Shown here: positions 2,064 through 21,645 of the stretch, piece by piece | How positions within the stretch are numbered: the stretch's first letter is position 1 | Layout of the letters: every line of letters starts with the position of its first letter | Source of the DNA: a virus | Taxonomy: Duplodnaviria; Heunggongvirae; Uroviricota; Caudoviricetes | Direction: 5' to 3' (one strand) | Length of the DNA stretch: 64,000 nucleotides | IMG/VR virus record: IMGVR_UViG_3300037471_001511 | Location: 1-64,000 of that record | Notes under the pieces: model-generated | Databases searched by the model: none | What the model saw: only the letters and a program-made list of their open reading frames with translations | What the model was told of the DNA's origin: nothing | Translations under genes and position numbers: made by a program

Positions 2064-3346
2064 GGTTCGCGACGGTCTGCTCAGGGGTTGAGGCCGTCAG
2101 CCTCGCGTGGGAGCCGCTGGGCTTCACGCCGGTGTTCTTCAGCGAGAACGCCAAGGCGCCGAGCAAGGTGCTCAAGCACCACTGGCCGCACGTCCCGAAC
2201 CTCGGCGACATGACCCAGATCGACGGCCGGGCGTGGCGCGGCCAGGTCGACGTGCTGTGGGGCTCGACGCCCTGCCAGAGCTTCAGCCTCGCCGGCCGGC
2301 GGGCCGGTCTGGCCGACCCGCGGGGCGGTCTGACCCTGAAGTTCGTGGACCTCGCCGACGAGATCGACCCAGCCTTCGTCTGCTGGGAGAACGTGAAGGG
2401 GGTGCTCAGTGACAAGCACAACGCTTTCGGATGCCTTCTCGCTGGTCTGGCCGGAGAAGATGTGCCGCTGGTCCCGTCAGGGACCAAATGGTCGAACGCT
2501 GGTTATGTGCTTGGACCCCAGAGAGCAGTCGCGTGGCGGCTCTTCGACGCCGAATACGCAGGCCTGGCGCAACGACGCGAGCGTGTCTTCCTTGTCAGCT
2601 GTCCTCGAGACGGGGCCGATCCCCGAGAGGTACTATTTGAGCGTGACGGCCTGCGTCGGGATCATCCGCCGAGCCGCGAAACGGGGACGGTCGTTGCCGC
2701 TCTTACTGCTCGCGGCGTTGGGGTCGGTGGTCCTGACCTCGCTCACGCCCAAGCAGGACATCTGCTCCCTGTTGTCGCTGTCCGCGGCGAAATAACCCAC
2801 CCCCTGCGCGGCGAAAGCCACGACGGCGGCGAGGACGGTCTCGGCAAGGGTACGCCGATCGTGGCGTTCTCCTGCAAGGACGACGGCGGCGACGCGGCCG
2901 GCGACGTGGCTCCGACGCTCAGGGCCATGACCCACGAGGGGTCGCACGCCAACGCAGGCGGTCAGCTGGCGGTCGCCTACGCCGTCGCCAGCCGTGGCCG
3001 GGACGACGGCGCCACCCTCGAGCTGGGCGGCGAGGTCGCCAACAGCCTGCGGGCGGCGGACGGCGGCGGCTCCCGTGAGCTGGTGCTGATCGCCGAGGCG
3101 CCCCTGTTCCAGAAGGTTCCGGTCACGCCACAGACGTTGGTGACGGCCGCACGGCTGGTCAGGGCGCGCGTTCGGCGGCTCACGCCGCTCGAGTGCGAAC
3201 GCCTGATGGGCTTTCCCGACAATCACACGCTGGTGCCGGGGATGGCCGACGCCCCCCGCTACAAGATGTGCGGCAACAGCGTGGCCGTTCCCGACGTCCG
3301 GTTCATCGGACAGGGCATCAAGAAGGTGGGGCTATGCAAGACGTAA
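2060..3346 (+). CDS. DNA (cytosine-5)-methyltransferase, orphan
   Basis: motif I VCSGVEA, motif IV GSTPCQSFSLAG, motif VI WENVKGVLS, C-terminal GNSVAVP (motif X); variable target-recognition region in the middle; start ATG 2060 in frame with track ORF 1706..3346. Confidence 0.9.
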   Translation: MRFATVCSGVEAVSLAWEPLGFTPVFFSENAKAPSKVLKHHWPHVPNLGDMTQIDGRAWRGQVDVLWGSTPCQSFSLAGRRAGLADPRGGLTLKFVDLADEIDPAFVCWENVKGVLSDKHNAFGCLLAGLAGEDVPLVPSGTKWSNAGYVLGPQRAVAWRLFDAEYAGLAQRRERVFLVSCPRDGADPREVLFERDGLRRDHPPSRETGTVVAALTARGVGVGGPDLAHAQAGHLLPVVAVRGEITHPLRGESHDGGEDGLGKGTPIVAFSCKDDGGDAAGDVAPTLRAMTHEGSHANAGGQLAVAYAVASRGRDDGATLELGGEVANSLRAADGGGSRELVLIAEAPLFQKVPVTPQTLVTAARLVRARVRRLTPLECERLMGFPDNHTLVPGMADAPRYKMCGNSVAVPDVRFIGQGIKKVGLCKT

Positions 3347-3894
3347 TGGTGGACATCGAGACCACGGGCACCGACCCGTGCCACACCTCGATCATCCAGC
3401 TCTCAGCGGTAAAGTTCGACTACGAGACCAGCCAGATCGGCGACTCGTTCGACATGTGCCTGTTCCCGCTGCCCGAGCGGTTCTGGGACGAGGACACCCG
3501 CGCGTTCTGGAACAAGAACAGCGAGGTGCTCGAGAGCATCCTGCACCGTGCCCAGGATCCGGCCGCGGTGATCCACGCCTTCGTGCAGTGGGTCCGCGAC
3601 GGCGGCAACGGCCAGCCGATGCGGCTCTGGGCCAAGCCGGCCACGTTCGAGCAGCCGTTCCTGGCCAGCTACTTCCGCCGCTTCGGCCTCGACAACCCGT
3701 TCCACTACCGCTTCACCATCGACCTGAACTCCTTCGTCCGCGGCATGCAGGGCGACCCCGGCGCCGAGCCGCTGGAGAAGAAGATCCCGTTCCAAGGCAA
3801 CATGCACGACGCGCTGGACGACGTGCTCCACCAAGTGAAGGTCGCGCTGATGGCCCGACACATGGTCGGGGGCGGCGCCGATGCGACTGCCTGA
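3334..3894 (+). CDS. DEDDh-type 3'-5' exonuclease (DnaQ-like)
   Basis: Exo I VDIETTG, Exo III HDALDD; ATG 3334 overlaps the MTase stop. Confidence 0.75.
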   Translation: MQDVMVDIETTGTDPCHTSIIQLSAVKFDYETSQIGDSFDMCLFPLPERFWDEDTRAFWNKNSEVLESILHRAQDPAAVIHAFVQWVRDGGNGQPMRLWAKPATFEQPFLASYFRRFGLDNPFHYRFTIDLNSFVRGMQGDPGAEPLEKKIPFQGNMHDALDDVLHQVKVALMARHMVGGGADATA

Positions 3895-4339
3895 CTGGCT
3901 GAAGGAGCGTCTGTTCAGTAGCGCGTTCGACGCGACCTGGCGCGACCCCGACCTGCTGATCGGGCCGGAGAACAACCCCTACCTGCGGCGCTGGTGGCTG
4001 GTCCCACGCAACCCGTTCCTGAACGTCTACCTGCACAACATCCGCAGGTCGGACGACGCGACCCGCGGCCTGCACGATCATCCATGGTGGTCGGTCAGCG
4101 TGCTGCTGAAAGGCAGCTACTACGAGATCGTGCCGCTGAACCCGCGCAACCCGAGGGGGCGGACGCAGCGCCTGTTCTGGCGATCAGGCTCGGTGATCTT
4201 CCGCGGCGCCAAGCACGCCCACCGGCTTGAGGTCACGCTTCCCAAGGCGAACGTCTGGACCCTGTTCATCACCGGTCCCCGCTTCCGCCAGTGGGGCTTC
4301 TGGGAACCCGAAGGATGGAGGGCGCACGATGCTCTATGA
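3881..4339 (+). CDS. hypothetical protein, possible cupin-fold metalloprotein
   Basis: GLHDHPWW (HxH) and a downstream AKHAHRLEV histidine, reminiscent of cupin metal-binding motifs; weak. Confidence 0.4.
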   Translation: MRLPDWLKERLFSSAFDATWRDPDLLIGPENNPYLRRWWLVPRNPFLNVYLHNIRRSDDATRGLHDHPWWSVSVLLKGSYYEIVPLNPRNPRGRTQRLFWRSGSVIFRGAKHAHRLEVTLPKANVWTLFITGPRFRQWGFWEPEGWRAHDAL

Positions 4340-4538
4340 CCTGAGCGCGTACCGTGAGGCTCGCGTCGAACCGCCTCCGGCCCCTCTGCCGGCCGAGGAC
4401 GAGGTGCTCTGCACCGTCACGATCACTTCCGAAGGGGTGCAGGTGTGGGTGTCCGACCAGGTCGCCACCCTGCCCCAGCGCGCCTGGCTGGCGCGCCGGA
4501 TCAATCAAGCGAAGGACATGCTGACATGGCGCGACTGA
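4329..4538 (+). CDS. hypothetical protein (69 aa)
   Basis: ATG 4329 in frame with track ORF 4227..4538; overlaps upstream stop. Confidence 0.35.
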   Translation: MLYDLSAYREARVEPPPAPLPAEDEVLCTVTITSEGVQVWVSDQVATLPQRAWLARRINQAKDMLTWRD

Positions 4539-5485
4539 AGCTCACCGGCGACGTCCATCTGGGCAAGAAGTTCCAGCAGAACGTCCCGCTTCACCGGCGC
4601 GGTGACCGCGAAAAGATGCAGTGGGAGCAGCTCGAGCGCGAGCTGATGGACTGCGACGGGGCCGACGCCCACATCCAGATGGGCGACATCTTCGACGGCT
4701 TCGTCGTCTCGTTCGCCGTGATCATGCGGCTGGTCGAGCTGTACAAGCGAGCCCGGGCCAAGAACCCGAACGTCCGCTTTGGCGTGCTCAGGGGCAACCA
4801 CGACGCGGACCGGGACCTGGACCGCGTGTCGGCGTTCGACGTGCTGGCCGAGCTGCTGGCCGCGATCGGCGTGGTGGTGGCCAAGGACGAGCCAGTGGAG
4901 ATCCTGCCCGGGCACTGGATGATCCCGTGGCACCCGATCATCTCGGCCCAGGCGATGGTCAACCACTACGCCGACCGGCTGGCCGGCGCCGCGGCGGTGT
5001 TCGGTCACTGGGACGTGGTCATGGGCGAGGAGAACCGCTGCCCGGCCCAGGCGCTGGCCCAGCTGGGCGTCGGCGCGATCTACACCGGCCACGACCACCT
5101 GCCGCGGATCGAGCGCGTGGACGGGGTCGACGTGTTCGTGGTGGGCTCGATGCAGCCCTACAGCCACGCCGAGGATCCGGGCGAGATCATCTACGTGACC
5201 CGCACCTTGGCCGAGGTCCGCGCCGACCCGAACGGCTTCGCCATGAAGGCGCTGCGCGTGGTGCTGGATCCGGGCGAGACCTTCGACCTGCAGATCGACT
5301 GCCTGCAGCTGCAGGTCACCCGCGGCAAGGTCGAGGCGGAGGAAGTCGACTTGGGCGAAGTCCAGTTCGAGGCCTTCGATCTGAACGAGCTGTTCGCGGC
5401 CGCCTGCCGGCAGATCGGGCTCGACGCCGAGACCCAGGCGCTCACCAGCCGGCGTCTGGAGGAAGAACGTGCGGCCCGCGCTTAG
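4526..5485 (+). CDS. sbcD: SbcD/Mre11-like metallophosphoesterase nuclease
   Basis: GDVHLG, GDIFDG, LRGNHD, GHWD, TGHDH calcineurin-like motifs; immediately followed by an SbcC-like ATPase. Confidence 0.8.
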   Translation: MARLKLTGDVHLGKKFQQNVPLHRRGDREKMQWEQLERELMDCDGADAHIQMGDIFDGFVVSFAVIMRLVELYKRARAKNPNVRFGVLRGNHDADRDLDRVSAFDVLAELLAAIGVVVAKDEPVEILPGHWMIPWHPIISAQAMVNHYADRLAGAAAVFGHWDVVMGEENRCPAQALAQLGVGAIYTGHDHLPRIERVDGVDVFVVGSMQPYSHAEDPGEIIYVTRTLAEVRADPNGFAMKALRVVLDPGETFDLQIDCLQLQVTRGKVEAEEVDLGEVQFEAFDLNELFAAACRQIGLDAETQALTSRRLEEERAARA

Positions 5486-10325: not shown

Positions 10326-12536
10326 GTGATTGTGCGTGAACTCGACCCTGGCATGGGCCAGGCCGTCGCCGAGCGGACTGTGCTCCGCCGCCAGCCGGAT
10401 GGCACTTTCGAGACCTGGGGCGACGTCGCCCACCGCGTCGCGGTCGGCAACTCGATGCTGACCGGAGACGTCAGCGACTACGCCCTGATGAAGCACCACT
10501 TGGGCCAAGCGACGCTGCTGATGTCTGGCCGTCACCTGCAACACGGGGACGAAACTCAGCCACAACGCAACCAAGAAGTTTATACAAATTGCTCAACTGC
10601 TGCGTGTACATTCGCCCTGTTTCTGCTGCTGCTGAACGGCTCGGGCGTCGGCCGCTGCTACGACGACGACATGATGCAGGTCGACTGGGAGTATGCGCCC
10701 GCCCTGCGTGTCGTGCTCAGCGACAGCCACCCGGACTTCGACTGGGCCAAGCACGAGAGCCTGCGCGAGGCGCGGCACAAGTACCGGGGCGCGATCTGGC
10801 ACGTGGTCGAGGACAGCCGGGAGGGCTGGGCCAAGGCCGTGGAGCTGTGGGAGACGCTGGCGTTCGAGAAGATCCACCGGGACAAGCTCCTGGTGCTGGA
10901 CTTCAGCCGGGTCCGGCCCCGAGGCGCGCCGATCGCCGGCATGCAGAACCGCCCCGCTTCCGGCCCGGCGCCGCTGATGGACGCCTTTCTGAAGGCGAAC
11001 ACGGTCCGCGGCGCCGGCCTCGAGCCGTGGCAGCAGACCATGTACATCGACCACTACTTCGCGGAGTGCGTACTGGTCGGCGGCGCCCGCCGGGCTGCGC
11101 GCATGGCCACCAAGTTCTGGCGCGACCGCAGCGTGCTCGAGTTCATCCACGTCAAACGGCCCGTCGAGTACGAGGGCCTGACCATGGACGAGATCGCGGC
11201 GCTGCCGTTCAAACCGTCGTCGTTCCTGTGGTCGTCGAACAATTCGGTGGCGGTGGACGCGGAGTTCTGGGCGCTGCTCGAGCAACCAGCCGACAGCAGC
11301 GCCGACGCCGCCCACGCCCACCGCGTCTGGAAGGCGCTGACCGAAGCCTCCTACGGCGACGGCACCGGCGAGCCCGGGATCATCAACGTCGACAAGCTCG
11401 AGCGGAACGACGAAGGCCTGATCGAGGACGGCGACTTCATCGGGTCGCGGAAGTACCAGGTGAGCCGGGAGACCCGGCGCTACCTCGCCAAGCTGGCCAA
11501 GCGCGCCAGTCAGAAGACCTACAACGTCATCGTCAACCCGTGCGGCGAGATCGTCCTGAACCTGCTCGGGGCCTACTGCGTGATCGCCGACGTGGTGCCC
11601 TACCACGCCCCGAACCTGGACGAGGCCGAGGAGGCCTTCCGGGTGGCCACCCGGGCGCTGATCCGCGTCAACCTGATGGACTGCCTGTACGGCCGCGAAA
11701 CGCGCCGCACGAACCGGATCGGCGTCGGCATGACCGGGGTCCACGAGTTCGCCTGGAAGTTCTTCTGGGTCGGCTTCCGCGACCTGATCAACCCGGACTT
11801 CGACGGCATCGACCAGCACGATCCGCGCGTGCGGGCGGCGTGCTTCTGGCGGACCATCGCCCGCTTCCGCGAGGCGGTGAAGGACGAGGCGATCACCTAT
11901 TCGCGCGAGCTGGGCGTCGCGATCCCGCACACCGCGTTCACCATCAAGCCGGCGGGCACGACTTCGAAGCTGTTCGGCCTTACCGAGGGCTGGCACCTGC
12001 CGCCGATGCGCGAGTACCTGCGCTGGGTGCAGTTCCGCGAGGACGACCCGCTGATCGCCACCTACGAGGCGGCCGGCTATCCGATCCGCAAGCTGAAGAC
12101 CTACACCGGCACGGTGATCGTCGGCTTCCCGACGCAGCCGGCGATCTGCCGGCTCGGCATGGGCGAGGCGCTGGTCACGGCCGGCGAGGCCACGCCGGAA
12201 GAGCAGTACCGGTGGCTGCAGCTCGGCGAGCGGTTCTGGATCGGCGACGACGGCATGGGCAACCAGATCAGCTACACGCTGAAGTACGATCCCAAGGTCG
12301 TGGGCTTCGACCAGTTCGAGTCCATGATGCGTGCCTACCAGCCGACCATCCGCTGCTGCTCGGTCATGCCCCAGGTCGACATGGCGGCCTACGAGTACCA
12401 GCCGGAAGAGCGGATCTCGGAACTCGAGTACGCCCGTCTGGTGCAGCAGATCGAGCGCAAGGCCGAGGACGTCGACCGGGAGCACGTCGACTGTTCCACC
12501 GGCGCTTGCCCGATTGACTTCCGCAAGACCGCCTGA
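10326..12536 (+). CDS. nrdJ: ribonucleotide reductase class II (adenosylcobalamin-dependent)
   Basis: catalytic NPCGEIVL motif, C-terminal CSTGACPIDF redox cysteines; 736 aa. Confidence 0.9.
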   Translation: MIVRELDPGMGQAVAERTVLRRQPDGTFETWGDVAHRVAVGNSMLTGDVSDYALMKHHLGQATLLMSGRHLQHGDETQPQRNQEVYTNCSTAACTFALFLLLLNGSGVGRCYDDDMMQVDWEYAPALRVVLSDSHPDFDWAKHESLREARHKYRGAIWHVVEDSREGWAKAVELWETLAFEKIHRDKLLVLDFSRVRPRGAPIAGMQNRPASGPAPLMDAFLKANTVRGAGLEPWQQTMYIDHYFAECVLVGGARRAARMATKFWRDRSVLEFIHVKRPVEYEGLTMDEIAALPFKPSSFLWSSNNSVAVDAEFWALLEQPADSSADAAHAHRVWKALTEASYGDGTGEPGIINVDKLERNDEGLIEDGDFIGSRKYQVSRETRRYLAKLAKRASQKTYNVIVNPCGEIVLNLLGAYCVIADVVPYHAPNLDEAEEAFRVATRALIRVNLMDCLYGRETRRTNRIGVGMTGVHEFAWKFFWVGFRDLINPDFDGIDQHDPRVRAACFWRTIARFREAVKDEAITYSRELGVAIPHTAFTIKPAGTTSKLFGLTEGWHLPPMREYLRWVQFREDDPLIATYEAAGYPIRKLKTYTGTVIVGFPTQPAICRLGMGEALVTAGEATPEEQYRWLQLGERFWIGDDGMGNQISYTLKYDPKVVGFDQFESMMRAYQPTIRCCSVMPQVDMAAYEYQPEERISELEYARLVQQIERKAEDVDREHVDCSTGACPIDFRKTA

Positions 12537-12608
12537 CACCGTCGGGCTGTTGAGGCCGGGCTAGGGCTGGACCCCACACCCAACCGTGACACGCGGACAC
12601 GCGCAAGG

Positions 12609-12645
12609 CAGCGCCCCGGTCTACAGACCGGGGCGCTGTTTTCGT
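12609..12645 (+). terminator. rho-independent terminator after nrdJ
   Basis: GCGCCCCGGTCT-acag-ACCGGGGCGC followed by TGTTTTCG. Confidence 0.55.
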
Positions 12646-12656
12646 CTGTACGGCTT

Positions 12657-12702
12657 GTTCTACTGGAACCCGATACTTTCCTCCCCGACATCCACTGGAA
12701 TG
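12657..12702. promoter_or_regulatory. two motif-family half-palindromes (TTCTACTGGAACC, TCCACTGGAAT)
   Basis: located between the nrdJ terminator and the xis/int genes. Confidence 0.4.
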
Positions 12703-12751
12703 AACAACTCGCCGCCCGCAGGCCGGCGAGCGCCGAGTCATGGTCGCGTGC

Positions 12752-13054
12752 ATGGATCCGACTACGCTCCCGCCACGCCTGACGCGCTCGGAAGTCCTTG
12801 CTCTGGCGAGGATCAGCGACAACACGCTGCGCAAGCACATCCGCGCCGGTCGGTTCCCTGCGCCAATCGACCGCGGGAAAGAGCAACTCTTCGCGCGCGA
12901 CCAGGTACTCAAAGTGATACAATCACGCCAGCAAGTACCTGATGTACCTGCGCTTTCGGAGACAGAGTATGACCACCAGAGGCAAGAAGCGATCCGCCTC
13001 GAATTCGAAAGGATCGCCCGCCGAAGTCGAGCGAAGGTTTCTCGATCAACTTGA
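12752..13054 (+). CDS. xis: excisionase/AlpA-like HTH protein
   Basis: SEVLALARISDNTLRKHIRAGRFPAPI resembles AlpA/phage excisionase HTH; 3' end overlaps int, so the true extent is uncertain. Confidence 0.45.
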   Translation: MDPTTLPPRLTRSEVLALARISDNTLRKHIRAGRFPAPIDRGKEQLFARDQVLKVIQSRQQVPDVPALSETEYDHQRQEAIRLEFERIARRSRAKVSRST

Positions 13055-14222
13055 ACTCGGCCAGTACGTCGAGGCGCGGAAGCGTGCAAACGGCACGTAT
13101 GCGGTGCGGTTCAAACTGTCACCTGCCATGACGCCAAAGGACTGGCCCTCGGTCTGGCCGCTTCCCCGCACCGGCAATTGGCCTGGCAACCTACTCGACC
13201 CTCAAGAAGTCCAAGCCATCCGTGACGACGCCGCTGCGCTCCGCGTGGAAGTCCAGATGGCTCGGGCGACGCAGAAGGTCGATGAGAACCAGGCCCTGCA
13301 GCCTCGGACGTGGGAAACCCTACGTGACCGGTGGGAGGCCGATCCGGAATTTAAGCGTCTCGACGACACGACCAAGCACGGCTATCGCGCCAATGTCAGG
13401 CGGGCCATCAGGCTGGCCACCGAGGATAACGTTCGACCCTCGACCGCATCAGAACTGGAAATCACAACAGCTCTGAACCGGGTGACGCACCCAGTCACCC
13501 GTACGGCGACCCTTCACGCCTTCCGTGTGATGCTCCGTGACGCCAAACGGCTCGGTTGGCGCAAGGACAACCCTACCGAGGACATCAAGATCAAGGGCCG
13601 AGCCAAAGCATCGCAGCAATCCCGCGTCGGAATTTGGGAAGCCGACGACGTGGCGTTTTATGCCCGCAAGGCGGAGGAAGCCGGCCTAGTTTCACTGGCT
13701 GGCATCATTCAGACCGAGTGGGAGATCGGCCAACGCCTGACCGATGTGCGCCTGTTCCGCTACGCCAAGGACAAGAAGGATCGCGAGGGACAATACCTTC
13801 GCTCCGACGGCGTGTTCCGCTTCTGGCAGAACAAGACACAGCAGTGGGTGACCATCCCAGTTTCAGATCGTTTGATGGGCCTCCTGAACCGGCCCGGCGG
13901 AAGCCTGCTGTTCCCGCACCCCACCACTGGCGAAGCCTACACCAGTGACCAACTGACGAAGGAGTTTAACGGGCTCCGGAAGCTGGTCGGCCGGAACCGT
14001 CGCTTCCTCGAAATGAAGCACCTGCGCCACTCCTGCGTCGTTCAGTTGGCGACCGCTGAACCGGTCCCATGCGAGATCCTCGAGATCGCGGCGATCACGG
14101 GGCACACAGTCGCGTCTGTGAATACGATCATTCAGCGCTACTGCCCGAGGGACAATCGCCTGGCTTGGGCGGCGCAGCGGAAACGCGGACTGGTCCGTTC
14201 GGAGCCTGCGGTCGCCCAATAA
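12969..14222 (+). CDS. int: tyrosine integrase
   Basis: C-terminal HLRHSCVV..., ITGHT and terminal Y (RHRY catalytic pattern); N-terminal arm-binding-like region; start could be 12942 or 12969. Confidence 0.85.
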   Translation: MTTRGKKRSASNSKGSPAEVERRFLDQLELGQYVEARKRANGTYAVRFKLSPAMTPKDWPSVWPLPRTGNWPGNLLDPQEVQAIRDDAAALRVEVQMARATQKVDENQALQPRTWETLRDRWEADPEFKRLDDTTKHGYRANVRRAIRLATEDNVRPSTASELEITTALNRVTHPVTRTATLHAFRVMLRDAKRLGWRKDNPTEDIKIKGRAKASQQSRVGIWEADDVAFYARKAEEAGLVSLAGIIQTEWEIGQRLTDVRLFRYAKDKKDREGQYLRSDGVFRFWQNKTQQWVTIPVSDRLMGLLNRPGGSLLFPHPTTGEAYTSDQLTKEFNGLRKLVGRNRRFLEMKHLRHSCVVQLATAEPVPCEILEIAAITGHTVASVNTIIQRYCPRDNRLAWAAQRKRGLVRSEPAVAQ

Positions 14223-14323
14223 TGGCGTTGTCCCCAAATTGCGGTTCTGTGCGGCCCCATGAGGCTCTGTGCGGTTTCTTGTCCCCAAACATCAATAAAA
14301 TCAATAGCTTACCTCTGATTTCG

Positions 14324-14373
14324 GTGGATTCATAACCCACAGGTCGCGAGTTCGATCCTCGCCCCAGCTACCA
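14324..14373 (+). other. 3' portion of a tRNA-Met(CAT)-like gene (anticodon arm, T arm, acceptor 3' strand, CCA) with no 5' half; putative attP core
   Basis: GTGGA-TTCATAA-CCCAC anticodon arm, GCGAG-TTCGATC-CTCGC T arm, CCCAGCT-A-CCA; upstream sequence cannot form D arm or acceptor 5' strand; lies 100 bp downstream of int. Confidence 0.6.
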
Positions 14374-14400
14374 AATTTCCCCTTCTAAATCAGAGAGTTA

Positions 14401-14431
14401 GGCCCCCGGAAACGGGGGCCTCTTTTTGTTT
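14401..14431 (+). terminator. rho-independent terminator downstream of int
   Basis: GGCCCCCGG-aaa-CGGGGGCC followed by TCTTTTTGTTT. Confidence 0.65.
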
Positions 14432-14599
14432 GGGGACATTTTGGGGACATGACACTGTCCCCAACGTTTTCACACGTTCTCGAGAATCACTGGTCAATGA
14501 AATGTGGCGGGGCGGCGGGGCGCGTAACTCCCCTGTTAACGTGTCCGCCGCCCCGCCTCGTGGCTCTCCGTCCCCAGGTCGAGGGAGCCACGAACTTGT

Positions 14600-14672
14600 T
14601 GGACGCGGTCGGGATCGAACCGACGGCCGAGGACTTTAAGTTCCCCTGCTCTCACCACTGAGCTACGCGCCC
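14600..14672 (-). tRNA. tRNA-like gene (73 nt, no encoded CCA) with canonical acceptor, D and T arms but ambiguous anticodon loop
   Basis: reverse complement GGGCGCG-TA-GCTC-AGTGGTGA-GAGC-A-GGGGA-ACTTAAA-GTCCT-CGGCC-GTCGG-TTCGATC-CCGAC-CGCGTCC-A; the anticodon stem has a mismatch in either register, giving UUA or UAA. Confidence 0.65.
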
Positions 14673-14831
14673 GAAAAACACCGCTACTCCCAGAGCCGCA
14701 CGTGCGGCCCCTCGACCCGGCGCCAGTACCGCCATTTCAACGTCAGTAGCCGGTCGTAGCCCGACCCGCGCCGGAACGCTGCGGCGACCTTGCGCCGGTA
14801 CTTCCGCAGCCGATGGTGGTCAGACCACTTG

Positions 14832-15044
14832 TCAGCCGCGCCAAGCATCAGGCGAGCCCCTCGAGATCATCCGTTGGCCCAGCGCGGCCCTGTAGCCGTG
14901 CAGGAACCCGGTCCACAGGATCTGGATGTCGTGCCGGCGGTACTGGCCGTGCTCGGGGTGGCGCTGCAGGTAGGGCGGGCCTGGCGACCTGGCGCGCAGG
15001 TCCGCCTCGAACAGCTCGCGGATCGCGTCCTCGTTCCCGATCAC
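14832..15044 (-). CDS. hypothetical protein (70 aa, GTG start)
   Basis: very high GC3 in this frame; RBS GGGAGGA 5 nt upstream of GTG; GTGA overlap with upstream gene. Confidence 0.45.
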   Translation of the reverse strand: MIGNEDAIRELFEADLRARSPGPPYLQRHPEHGQYRRHDIQILWTGFLHGYRAALGQRMISRGSPDAWRG

Positions 15045-20704: not shown

Positions 20705-21016
20705 TCACAGGTCGGGCCTCTTAATCCCGCCCGGCGGTCGACGGATGATCGCGACGAGGAAGATGACGGTCAGCACCAGCATCAGGATGTTGGGCGCCGC
20801 GACCCATACAGGTTTGTGACCAGCGATGTTGCGCCCAAGCTCGCCGAGGTAGTTGCCGAGGACGGCCCCCCATCCCCCCAGCGCCATCGCCCGGAAGAAC
20901 TGGACGTCGCGGATCGCCAGGTCCATTACCCGTTCGAAGCGGGCAAACAGTTCTTCAATTGCTGTCGGCGCCCACGGCCCCCGCGCGCGTGGGTTCAGGT
21001 CGGGGAGGGTGTTCAC
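20705..21016 (-). CDS. membrane protein (C-terminal TM), co-transcribed with repressor
   Basis: NILMLVLTVIFLVAII TM segment; 4-bp overlap with repressor stop. Confidence 0.5.
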   Translation of the reverse strand: MNTLPDLNPRARGPWAPTAIEELFARFERVMDLAIRDVQFFRAMALGGWGAVLGNYLGELGRNIAGHKPVWVAAPNILMLVLTVIFLVAIIRRPPGGIKRPDL

Positions 21017-21645
21017 GCGACCTTCTCCACGAGGTAGCCGCTCCCGGTCGTCCGCACGGCGAGTCGTCCGGCCCCCACGCTGGCGGCCATCGACTTGACG
21101 GCCTGCGGCGAGCTGAAGATCCCGAACGGGAAGGTGATCTTCTCACCGGTGGATTTTTCGAGCAGCGATTCCATCTGCAGCCGCTCGGGCGACTTCTGCC
21201 GCCCGGTCTGCCGCGGCTGCACGGCGACGGTGACGGCGTCCTCACGGATCGGCGGCAGGTCGTTCCTGCAGCGAAGCTGACTGGCGCCTACGGCGAGATC
21301 CCTGATCAGCTTGCGCTGGGCCGGATGCAGTTCGAGCAGGGCGGTGACGATCTCATGACCGTAGTCGACCGCGAGCAGCTGCTCGAGCGGCGAGGAGGGC
21401 ATCTCGTACCCGGCCTCCAAGCCCTCGAAGAAGTAGGAAATGGGGACCTGCAGCTTCTTCGCCGCCATCATCAGGCTCGACGAGGAAACCCGGTTGGTGC
21501 CTTTCTCGTACTTCTGAACCTGCTGGAACGTGACCTCCATCGCGGTGGCCAGTTCCGATTGGGACACTCCGATCTGCTTGCGACGCGATCGGATACGAGT
21601 ACCCACGTAAACGTCGACTTCGTGCAAACCACTACCCCCGGTCAC
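21013..21645 (-). CDS. XRE-family HTH transcriptional regulator, candidate phage repressor (GTG start)
   Basis: IRSRRKQIGVSQSELATAMEVTFQQVQKYEKGTNRVSSSSLMMAAKKLQVPISYF is a classic XRE/Cro-CI HTH; about 110-aa C-terminal extension of unclear type. Confidence 0.7.
   Translation of the reverse strand: MTGGSGLHEVDVYVGTRIRSRRKQIGVSQSELATAMEVTFQQVQKYEKGTNRVSSSSLMMAAKKLQVPISYFFEGLEAGYEMPSSPLEQLLAVDYGHEIVTALLELHPAQRKLIRDLAVGASQLRCRNDLPPIREDAVTVAVQPRQTGRQKSPERLQMESLLEKSTGEKITFPFGIFSSPQAVKSMAASVGAGRLAVRTTGSGYLVEKVA

Follow-up and report, generated by a model that had tools for sequence, protein, structure and literature searches.

Organization of the locus

The window, the whole stretch of DNA analyzed here (64 kb; positions 1 to 64,000 of IMG/VR virus record IMGVR_UViG_3300037471_001511), contains at 14229-14465 a dense group of repeats around the 3' part of a tRNA gene (Table 1). 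The segment follows a gene for a tyrosine integrase (int), which is preceded by a gene for a small Xis-like protein. Besides five copies of a 10-mer it includes two copies of a second direct repeat, a match to the IHF consensus, an inverted repeat and an intrinsic terminator. A preliminary description of this DNA had read the integrase, the tRNA fragment and the repeats as the attachment site of a phage (attP). Every element that it described is present where it had been placed, and the attP interpretation is supported by our analysis.

Table 1 Features of the attP region and of related genes in the window.
Feature	Position	Strand	Remarks
Xis-like small helix-turn-helix gene, candidate excisionase or directionality factor	12740..13054	+	3' end overlaps the start of int
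Tyrosine integrase gene (int), 417 aa	12969..14222	+	Public gene call P0001, exact; longest open reading frame from 12942; stop at 14222
10-mer TGTCCCCAAA, candidate arm-type site P1	14229..14238	+	7 bp past the int stop
TCTGTGCGG, two direct copies, also written (T)CTGTGCGG	14246-14254, 14266-14274	+	20 bp apart, between the left 10-mers
10-mer TGTCCCCAAA, candidate arm-type site P2	14280..14289	+	
IHF-consensus match AATCAATAGCTTA (consensus WATCAANNNNTTR)	14299..14311	+	Between P2 and the core
9-bp inverted repeat CTCTGATTT / AAATCAGAG	14313-14321 / 14387-14395	+	Brackets the tRNA fragment
3' fragment of tRNA-Met(CAU), 52 nt; attP core or identity block	14322..14373	+	tRNA positions 26-77; starts 100 bp past the int stop
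Anticodon loop TTCATAA, predicted 7-bp overlap (strand-exchange) region	14329..14335	.	
Intrinsic terminator: 9-bp G+C-rich hairpin (14400-14421) and T run CTTTTTGTTT	14400..14431	+	
Two tandem 10-mers, candidate P'1 and P'2	14429-14438, 14440-14449	-	+ strand reads TTTGGGGACA; 11-bp period
TGTCCCCAAC, 10-mer with one mismatch, candidate P'3	14456..14465	+	
XRE/CI-type repressor candidate, 210 aa	21013..21645	-	PHROG transcriptional repressor/regulator families, best 2e-11

The integrase and its Xis-like neighbor

The identification of int as an integrase gene holds at the level of both family and fold. Its product matches phrog_1, a PHROG integrase family, with an E-value of 1.9e-11; it scores under the Pfam threshold for PF00589, a domain carried by its 40%-identical homologs. 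Across 47 sequences of the integrase family, the catalytic residues R256, K289, R353, H379 and Y391 do not vary. The AlphaFold (AF2) model (pLDDT 89) consists of an N-terminal three-strand sheet and helix (strands 34-38, 44-49 and 62-64, then a long helix at 78-110), a core-binding domain and a catalytic domain. Its best PDB matches in Foldseek are structures of full-length lambda Int, 1z1b (E 2e-8, 387 alignment columns) and 1z1g, and the fold also matches Tn1549 Int, Xer and Cre. The gene encodes a lambda-like, three-domain tyrosine recombinase with the catalytic R-K-(H)-R-H-Y set, for which a separate N-terminal arm-binding domain is predicted at the level of the structural model.

The 40%-identical homologs sit at prophage ends, adjoining tRNA genes. 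At four positions of the N-terminal domain, an arginine conserved in 93% or more of the homologs is replaced in the window integrase. The next-best integrase is 43% identical; IMG/VR searched with the integrase gave no relatives, and a blastn search of INPHARED with 12700-15000 gave no match. Logan contigs with the same integrase (L007) and with a gene from the right end (L006) match the window at 100% identity and therefore add no independent evidence. The Xis-like gene matches Pfam HTH_17 (1.9e-5) and Exc (4.7e-4), as well as the PHROG family phrog_66, 'excisionase and transcriptional regulator' (2.2e-6).

A tRNA-Met fragment forms the core

The fragment holds the anticodon stem-loop, the variable loop, a complete T arm, the 3' acceptor strand, the discriminator A and CCA, with the anticodon CAT at 14331-14333 in the loop TTCATAA. 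Its partial nature, anticipated in the preliminary description, is reflected in the tRNA searches: ARAGORN finds no tRNA there, and the match to the Rfam tRNA model is partial and stays below threshold (17.7 bits, E 0.73). Alignment with the tRNA-Met of the IMG/VR locus L014, of Phenylobacterium sp. (L046) and of Caulobacter sp. (L047) shows 46 identical positions out of 52, which confirms the fragment as the 3' part of a tRNA-Met. The six differences make up three compensatory T-stem pairs, each a double change that preserves pairing, and the phage-supplied piece includes both strands of this stem. No change is seen in the strands that pair with host 5' strands, on the 3' sides of the anticodon stem and of the acceptor. 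A perfect block of 25 nt (14322-14346) shared with the Caulobacter sp. and Phenylobacterium sp. tRNA-Met spans the anticodon arm, and a chimera of host 5' and phage 3' parts is called tRNA-Met(CAT) by ARAGORN.

Judged from its sequence, the fragment appears able to regenerate a split tRNA gene, following the Islander principle. It illustrates a known rule: changes in the phage half of a tRNA are confined to helices of which the phage supplies both strands. The predicted attB is a Caulobacteraceae tRNA-Met(CAU) gene. Crossover probably takes place in the anticodon loop. On either side of TTCATAA lie the halves of an imperfect inverted repeat, GGTGGA / CCCACA, formed by the anticodon stem; these are candidate core-type sites. 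Twelve other viral contigs have homology to the same tRNA-Met that begins exactly at TTCATAA.

A tRNA-Met of this kind is an attB in use by other prophages. The same tRNA-Met stands at prophage ends in IMG/VR (L014, L018), and the integrated state is seen in contig 3300011212_000013, which belongs to a different phage and shares the int-then-fragment polarity of the window; there, an int-adjacent fragment (L020) and an intact tRNA-Met (L011) are 39 kb apart. In two Caulobacteraceae genomes the predicted target adjoins a glycosyltransferase / asparagine-synthase pair.

The expectation that a host tRNA would share the 3' sequence is borne out only in part, for the Caulobacteraceae tRNA-Met at the 46 positions given above but not for the phage version of the T stem. 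This stem (GCGAG/CTCGC), combined with the same anticodon arm or acceptor, was not found in 185,579 species genomes, JGI metagenome contigs or IMG/VR, and the exact attB is therefore unobserved. The phage tRNA version gave no matches in the JGI metagenome contigs, either with or without the end of the D arm, in a collection without the source contig, and the same phage-version 34-mer gave none in IMG/VR. Among the 185,579 species genomes, the sole match of the exact 30-mer of T arm and acceptor is a Patescibacteria tRNA-Met, which was rejected as the host target as it has a different anticodon arm and no CCA. BLAST of plasmids and phages with the Caulobacteraceae tRNA-Met yielded nothing above 84% identity. 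A search of IMG/VR for the 10-mer 35-65 nt past a tRNA-Met 3' end had no matches, and neither the integrase relatives nor these IMG/VR junctions revealed an integrated copy of the phage or of a near relative. The product is thus unobserved, which does not speak against the mechanism. Integration elsewhere with different junctions, which would have spoken against the site, was likewise not found.

Repeats to the left and right of the core

The five 10-mers lie two to the left and three to the right of the tRNA fragment, with the second repeat twice between the left copies, just as first described. Relative to the center of the anticodon at 14332, the copies start (+ strand) at -103 and -52 and at +97, +108 and +124. 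Allowing one mismatch, the 10-mer has 5 matches on both strands of the 64 kb, against 2.0 expected, dispersed over the whole window, and all are within 237 bp; this clustering is far beyond chance. P'2 and P'3 together make the palindrome TTGGGGACA-N6-TGTCCCCAA. Distinct from the core sequence and present on both of its sides, the 10-mers are arm-type repeats and candidate Int sites. Their arrangement is that of arm-binding sites, as the preliminary description had claimed, and the same 10-mers flank the att cores of other phages, while binding by Int is what we infer from this geometry.

The TCTGTGCGG pair represents a second repeat class that is confined to the int-proximal arm, and its copies are candidate Xis sites or alternative Int sites. 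They resemble GTCTGACGG repeats found at the int stop codon of the 40%-identical homologs. The IHF-consensus match is the single one on both strands of the 64 kb, where 0.21 would be expected. RNA folding of 14305-14432 (z = -3.47) predicts the 9-bp stem that brackets the tRNA fragment. A match to the Rfam family 'Phe_leader' (26.7 bits, where the gathering score is 55) was dismissed as a chance match to this stem and the terminator.

The site lies in an unintegrated, Seuss-like phage genome

The closest sequenced phage is Caulobacter phage Seuss (Seussvirus), with identities of 63.5% for TerL, 62% for the major head protein, 56% for the primase and 59% for the DNA polymerase over the part of the gene that lies inside the window. 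Gene order is shared across the window. To the left of the site, polymerase, nuclease and kinase genes correspond to 43-54 kb of Seuss; to the right, tail, head, portal, terminase and primase genes correspond in order to 2.4-28 kb. Identities of the flanking genes to Seuss are 35-64%. Since both flanks are colinear with one Seuss genome, the site is an unintegrated attP and not a prophage edge, and the presence of the 10-mer on both sides of the core means that both arms are phage-derived. The earlier statement that phage genes continue on both sides is in this way substantiated. Annotation of window ORFs brought up no bacterial housekeeping genes.

Seuss has no annotated integrase, and the window Int and Xis have no tblastn match in it. 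At ~40.2 kb, Seuss has convergent terminators where the window has a class II RNR, xis, int, attP and a tRNA. The lysogeny cassette of xis, int and attP is thereby placed at a junction of convergent transcription, and the only cultured relative is a phage without an annotated integrase. The repressor candidate is consistent with a temperate lifestyle.

Taken together, we assign 14229-14465, with a probability of roughly 0.8, as the attP of a temperate Seuss-like siphophage in its unintegrated form, with a host that probably belongs to the Caulobacteraceae. Through this site the uncultured phage is marked as temperate, and both its host family and its target, tRNA-Met(CAU), are predicted.

The 10-mer in other phages

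In distant phages, the tandem 10-mer flanks att cores beside unrelated integrases. Pairs of the 10-mer flank tRNA-derived cores beside tyrosine integrases at three loci (L028, L029, L031). In the virion-derived genome of a Latilactobacillus phage (L048), a pair flanks a core that again lies beside a tyrosine integrase, and at two prophage junctions (L025, L035) the 10-mers come after intact tRNAs. The preliminary description had suggested looking for the same 10-mers near the attP of related phages; they recur in these distant phages, and the 40%-identical integrase homologs lack them. Two scrambled tandem controls for the 10-mer gave no matches. Integrases beside the same 10-mer elsewhere are 14-18% identical to the window Int or not alignable. 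GGGGACA clusters also adjoin primase genes at loci that lack a nearby integrase (L049, L027/L037).

A search for a shared protein behind the 10-mer, in which Int, its N-terminal domain and Xis were compared by phmmer and BLASTP with motif-near ORFs of 15 loci among the matches listed, returned nothing significant. Literature on the 10-mer or GGGGACA in connection with attP amounted to primers and unrelated matches. A tblastx comparison of the IMG/VR loci with the window was discarded as composition-driven noise. Reading TTGTCCCCA as a DnaA box was set aside by reasoning, since the same C-rich 10-mer, and not TTATCCACA, is what low-G+C phages have.

The 10-mer occurs in phages of 26% to 66% G+C, among them Caulobacter-type and Latilactobacillus phages and many uncultured lineages; among the tyrosine integrases beside 10-mer-flanked cores there is no detectable sequence similarity. 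This raises the possibility, which we regard as rather doubtful, that TGTCCCCAAA, typically in tandem one helical turn apart, is an att-site organizing motif found across phyla. Its recurrence in unrelated phages could, if real, be of wider import. With one conserved reader of the 10-mer, the recognition of arm sites would be far less idiosyncratic than the examples of lambda, P2 and L5 suggest, and the reader could be either a structurally conserved code of the Int N-terminal domain or an unrecognized shared accessory protein. The 10-mer would then offer a sequence handle for locating att sites directly.

Alternative interpretations

The alternative that deserves most attention accepts the attP but not the role of the 10-mers, which would be bound by the Xis-like protein or by another accessory or regulatory protein, or would be iteron-like, leaving TCTGTGCGG to the N-terminal domain of Int. 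The 40%-identical homologs, all of which lack the 10-mer, have two to three GTCTGACGG at the int stop codon; as the window has the similar TCTGTGCGG twice, in the int-proximal arm, the 10-mers need not be Int sites. Their occurrence in phages with sequence-unrelated integrases, the GGGGACA clusters by primase genes without an integrase and the P'2/P'3 palindrome, as for a dimeric helix-turn-helix protein, point the same way. However, TCTGTGCGG occurs on one arm, whereas heterobivalent integrases need both, and it is the 10-mer that is distributed 2 + 3 over ~240 bp. P1, directly past the int stop, occupies the same place as the repeats of the homologs, and the replacement of four conserved N-domain arginines is expected of a changed arm specificity. 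On balance we consider this alternative unlikely, although it is one to keep in view.

Two further readings deny that the segment is an attP at all. The fragment could be a decayed, 5'-truncated phage tRNA gene with no role in integration, the repeats serving some other end; a phage-borne tRNA is indeed only 230 bp away, and the three collections hold no exactly matching host tRNA. Yet the piece is undecayed, with pair-preserving differences and unchanged host-pairing strands, and its truncation falls at the anticodon stem, where the tRNA-Met fragments of many elements start, which is the commonest attP class. It also lies 100 bp past a Xis-Int pair in a repeat-flanked 240-bp unit with an IHF site, so we hold decay to be very improbable. 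Scarcely any weight can be given to the idea that the window is bacterial chromosome, with the site as a prophage edge (attR) or the boundary of two integrated elements and host DNA or a second prophage to the right. An attR, too, would have a tRNA fragment after int, and a convergent tRNA gene and hairpins do come next, but this reading conflicts with the colinearity of both flanks with one Seuss genome at 35-64% identity, with annotated ORFs among which no bacterial housekeeping genes were recognized, and with the 10-mer on both sides of the core, by which both arms are phage-derived.

A model for integration and excision

With 14229-14465 as an unintegrated attP, the core-binding and catalytic domains of Int would bind the anticodon-stem inverted repeat GGTGGA / CCCACA, while its N-terminal domain would bind arm repeats ~45-130 bp away on both sides, most likely the five copies of TGTCCCCAAA. 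An IHF-type bend at 14299-14311 may help the ~240-bp intasome to fold. Strand exchange with the host tRNA-Met(CAU) would occur inside the shared 25-nt block, most likely across TTCATAA.

The predicted attL consists of the host tRNA 5' part, the phage 3' part with its own T stem, and the phage terminator, leaving the tRNA gene intact; its junction would read host GGCTGGGTAGCTCAGATGGTTAGAG followed by the window from 14322 onward. At attR, int would stand beside the displaced host 3' fragment, the junction running from the window through 14346 into the host T arm GCGGTTCGATCCCGCCCCCAGCTACCA and the host flank. The terminator would end int as long as the phage is free and, in the lysogen, the rebuilt tRNA-Met. 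Excision would be directed by the Xis-like protein.

Comparison with known attachment sites

A half-tRNA between repeated motifs is a well-known arrangement, and the site, although correctly identified, is ordinary. In P2-like phages, attP has direct repeats with the consensus tgTGGaCa on both sides of the core, which are read by the N-terminal domain of Int (PMC3448106). This consensus is one base off the TGGGGACA part of the window 10-mer, and the ~11-bp spacing of tandem pairs in P2 recurs in the P' arm of the window and in L028, L029 and L048. In contrast to P2, the left copies in the window are 51 bp apart and not tandem, and the right tandem pair is inverted with respect to them. By sequence, the window Int is not a homolog of P2 Int, the catalytic domain of which is only at rank 50 in the fold search. 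A P2-type attP has at least two direct tgTGGaCa per side and a P2-family integrase; the window does not have this combination, and the likeness is one of resemblance only. P2 is not known to target a tRNA gene.

Integrative elements that target tRNA genes through an anticodon-centered attP are reported (Williams 2002). In the Islander classification, the anticodon-centered attP (class A) is the commonest class, and its elements carry the 3' part of the target tDNA, regenerating the gene, next to a tyrosine integrase (PMC4383910). The window shares these properties; its fragment starts at the anticodon stem, and the same tRNA-Met is used likewise by other prophages. It departs from class A elements in that three compensatory T-stem pairs set its copy apart from the one candidate target known so far and in that the integrated form of the phage has not been observed.

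Lambda offers a parallel in the proteins and in overall layout. Its core is a 15-bp intergenic sequence rather than a 52-nt tRNA-gene fragment, its arm motif is different, and lambda Int and the window Int are ~16% identical in the structural alignment. Nevertheless, both attP sites measure ~240 bp and have five arm-type repeats arranged 2 + 3 around the core, with an IHF-consensus site between arm and core. Both systems employ a tyrosine integrase, heterobivalent in lambda and predicted to be so in the window, full-length lambda Int being the best match of the window Int model, and xis, or the Xis-like gene in the window, overlaps int. In lambda as in the window, int adjoins attP, and the 3' flank of int therefore changes on integration.

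Layout of the attachment site

The elements listed in the preliminary description, an integrase gene followed by a tRNA-Met fragment bracketed by five arm-type repeats, are all present in 14222-14470. Four of the five 10-mers (P1, P2, P'1 and P'2) are exact copies of TGTCCCCAAA, while P'3 (TGTCCCCAAC) carries one mismatch. With up to one mismatch allowed, the whole 64 kb contains no further match on either strand, and all five lie inside 237 bp; the chance level from dinucleotide-preserving shuffles is 2.0 matches over the whole window, and the clustering is not due to chance. The left copies are in direct orientation, 51 bp apart, with two copies of TCTGTGCGG, spaced by 20 bp, between them. 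P'1 and P'2 follow each other in tandem at an 11-bp period and point the opposite way to the left pair, and P'3 forms a palindrome with the neighbouring 10-mer.

Features of the attP site, with one comparison locus
Sequence	Feature	Position	Strand	Remark
Window	int stop	14222	+	
Window	10-mer P1	14229	+	
Window	TCTGTGCGG x2	14246, 14266	+	
Window	10-mer P2	14280	+	
Window	IHF consensus match	14299-14311	+	sole match in window, 0.21 expected
Window	anticodon stem-loop core GGTGGA-TTCATAA-CCCACA	14323-14341	+	
Window	remainder of tRNA fragment	up to 14373	+	
Window	terminator	14400-14431	+	
Window	10-mer P'1	14429	-	
Window	10-mer P'2	14440	-	
Window	10-mer P'3	14456	+	
Latilactobacillus phage OP455936.1	locus L048	2341-2520		

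A perfect 9-bp inverted repeat, CTCTGATTT (14313-14321) and AAATCAGAG (14387-14395), encloses the tRNA fragment. When 14305-14432 is folded as RNA (z = -3.47), the repeat forms a stem around the T-arm hairpin, followed by the terminator. Integration would split its arms and leave int with a 3' UTR structure in the prophage unlike that in the phage, which presumably recalls lambda sib.

A tRNA-Met fragment and its predicted target

ARAGORN calls no tRNA at the fragment, and its match to the Rfam tRNA model is only partial and below threshold (17.7 bits), as expected of a fragment rather than a gene. The exact 30-mer covering T arm and acceptor is absent from 185,579 species genomes save for one Patescibacteria tRNA-Met, in which the anticodon arm differs. 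A looser pattern, with the anticodon loop, 3' stem strand and variable loop fixed and the T stem free, matches at least 15 IMG/VR stretches of 59-70% G+C. Among the matches listed, L011, L014 and L018 are intact tRNA-Met genes located at the ends of prophages, and the other 12 are 3' fragments whose homology starts exactly at the anticodon loop TTCATAA. Traced through the serine recombinase beside the L014 tRNA, the identical 77-nt tRNA-Met occurs in two genomes, Phenylobacterium sp. GCA_030698145.1 and Caulobacter sp. GCA_046295055.1, which shows that tRNAs of the L014 type are genuine chromosomal genes.

Window 14322-14373 is identical to positions 26-77 of this tRNA-Met at 46 of 52 bases, in successive runs of 25, 9 and 12 matches separated by two blocks of 3 mismatches. 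The six differences convert, from tRNA-Met to phage, G50-C64 to C-G, C51-G63 to G-C and G52-C62 to A-T, all of them compensatory, and the resulting T-arm variant is also present in a natural tRNA-Met. The altered helix is the sole one with both strands in the phage-supplied piece. Unchanged are the 3' strands of the anticodon stem and the acceptor, which would have to pair with host 5' strands after integration. ARAGORN calls a chimera of host positions 1-26 and the phage fragment as tRNA-Met(CAT). The alignment, the compensatory changes and the chimera support, at sequence level, the proposal that the fragment could rebuild the host tRNA. The expectation that a host tRNA shares its 3' sequence is borne out in part: a Caulobacteraceae tRNA-Met does so with six differences, and the exact phage version was not found in any collection searched. 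This is explained either by a true host that has yet to be sampled or by divergence of the phage copy at positions free to change.

Other elements at the same tRNA-Met

In IMG/VR record 3300011212_000013, a fragment (L020, at 5.6 kb) and the intact L011 tRNA-Met (at 44.7 kb) lie on the same strand. The arrangement is the integrated product as predicted for the window phage, with the same int-then-fragment polarity, and was produced by an integrase of a different family. The gene running into the L020 fragment is a tyrosine integrase with a 431-codon frame (measured to the upstream stop), ending at the TAA of the anticodon loop. Loci L008, L012, L015 and L020 share this other tyrosine-integrase family (~400-430 codons), with the stop codon inside the attP core, at the TAA of TTCATAA.

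Serine-recombinase prophages also occupy this tRNA-Met, so that one Caulobacteraceae gene is used by at least three recombinase families. The large serine recombinase abuts the tRNA 3' end at L014 (114-1742), L046 (Phenylobacterium, 3001-4617) and L047 (Caulobacter, 3001-4587).

Phage genes on both sides of the site

To the left, on the + strand, lie genes for DNA polymerase A, an exonuclease, an SbcCD-like nuclease, a dNMP kinase and a class II ribonucleotide reductase; to the right, on the - strand, are endolysin, tail, tape-measure, major head, portal and large terminase genes, then primase. The nearest known phage is Caulobacter phage Seuss (TerL 63.5% identical). Colinear matches of 25 window proteins, the left genes to Seuss 43-54 kb and the right genes to 2.4-28 kb, indicate from gene order that both flanks are one Seuss-like genome. 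This, and the presence of 10-mers to the left and right of the core, upholds the attP configuration first proposed and rules out both an attL/attR junction and a pair of abutting elements. The xis-int-attP cassette occupies the place of a convergent terminator pair in Seuss, which has no annotated integrase and no match to the window Int and Xis. Window 10326-14700 holds a single-chain class II (B12-type) ribonucleotide reductase and the xis-int-attP-tRNA cassette, and the corresponding Seuss 40.2-43.1 kb holds class I large and small subunits and the convergent terminators.

The neighbouring tRNA-Leu(TAA) call (14600-14672, - strand) is atypical. It is 73 nt in length, belongs to class I and lacks a long variable arm; it combines a G3.U70 wobble with A73, its anticodon stem contains an A.C mismatch, and CCA is not encoded. 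G3.U70 and A73 are the alanine identity set. TTA occurs once in ~16,800 codons of phage ORFs. The tRNA might be charged with alanine while reading leucine codons, or might be degenerate. Just downstream of its 3' end, a perfect G+C-only 13-bp inverted repeat (14506-14518 / 14545-14557, 26-nt loop, no T run) is possibly its terminator or processing hairpin.

Integrase and associated genes

The int ORF (12942-14222) falls below Pfam thresholds and matches the PHROG integrase family phrog_1 at 1.9e-11; it has hundreds of homologues at ~40% identity, many with PF00589. Across 47 aligned family members, the catalytic residues Arg256, Lys289, Arg353, His379 and Tyr391 are invariant. The AlphaFold model derived from this alignment (pLDDT 89) places an N-terminal three-strand sheet and long helix ahead of a helical core-binding domain and a catalytic domain, and its top PDB matches are full-length lambda integrase (1z1b, 1z1g). 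A 104-aa HTH_17/excisionase-like gene overlaps the start of int, and a candidate CI-type repressor (210 aa) is encoded at 21013-21645.

Homologous integrases in Phenylobacterium and other Caulobacteraceae assemblies lie at the ends of prophage-like gene blocks, directly adjoining tRNA-Arg, tRNA-Lys, tRNA-Leu or tRNA-Ser genes; the family habitually targets tRNA genes. At or overlapping the stop codon of ~40%-identical homologues are two to three direct repeats of GTCTGACGG / GTCTAACG (L002 7129-7200; L003 7149-7181; L004 7152-7184; L043 6177-6209; L045 6170-6200). These homologues adjoin different tRNA genes, and the repeat is a family-level arm motif distinct from the window 10-mer.

The 10-mer in other phages and its candidate binder

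Scanning IMG/VR for tandem TTTGGGGACAnTTTGGGGACA yields at least 15 stretches from at least eight unrelated lineages (26-57% G+C), against 0 matches for two composition-matched scrambled controls. The 10-mer thus recurs near att sites of other phages, a comparison that the preliminary description had called for. L028, L029 and L031 each have a tyrosine integrase next to a tRNA 3' fragment with pairs of the 10-mer around it; a tandem pair lies 3' of an intact tRNA at the prophage-host junction in L025 and L035; and virion-derived genomes of Latilactobacillus sakei phages have two tandem pairs, spaced by 150 bp, directly adjoining the integrase gene. Across L023-L037 and L048, tandem TGTCCCCAAA/TTTGGGGACA has an 11-bp period, often in two clusters 150-300 bp apart that often surround a tRNA fragment beside a tyrosine integrase. 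A search of the genes near the 10-mer loci turned up no protein common to them.

Fionnbharthvirus mycobacteriophages and L027/L037 have GGGGACA clusters as well, there adjoining primase genes and with no integrase in the vicinity, so the motif is not exclusive to att sites. Dense GGGGACA / TGTCCCC clusters in both orientations sit just downstream of primase/polymerase genes in L049 (Mycobacterium phage Cheetobro, 47.7-48.0 kb), L027 (380-720) and L037 (2150-2560). The primase-side clusters could be iterons or regulator sites.

We consider it probable (about 0.6) that the integrase N-domain binds the 10-mers. They are present on both arms, P1 sits where the 40% homologues have two to three copies of GTCTGACGG at the int stop, and the similar consensus tgTGGaCa is found in P2-type phages, with at least two direct repeats per arm (PMC3448106). 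Four N-domain arginines that are ≥93% conserved in homologues are replaced in the window Int (R45A, R53A, R55T, R71W), which is what a specificity switch would look like. Against the integrase, TCTGTGCGG resembles GTCTGACGG, and the 10-mer is common to phages with unrelated integrases (14-18% identical to the window Int, or not alignable). Binding by Xis or another factor we regard as unlikely.

Comparison with known systems

The attP finding is real and its initial reading correct. Sites of this kind are very well known, and this one is a new instance. What it contributes is a prediction of host and target, a tidy set of compensatory changes and one unexplained side observation, a single 10-mer shared widely among phages.

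The site parallels lambda attP in its 237-bp span, 2+3 split of candidate arm sites and predicted bend site. A lambda-type intasome would assemble here, with strand exchange probably in the anticodon loop. In the lysogen, the rebuilt tRNA would rely on the T stem and terminator supplied by the phage, and int would be left without its terminator, which would lie at the other prophage end. The arrangement is ordinary, since in the Islander collection of tDNA-targeting elements 3760 of 3919 islands have a 3' tDNA fragment and 2083 of 3919 an anticodon-centred attP (PMC4383910).
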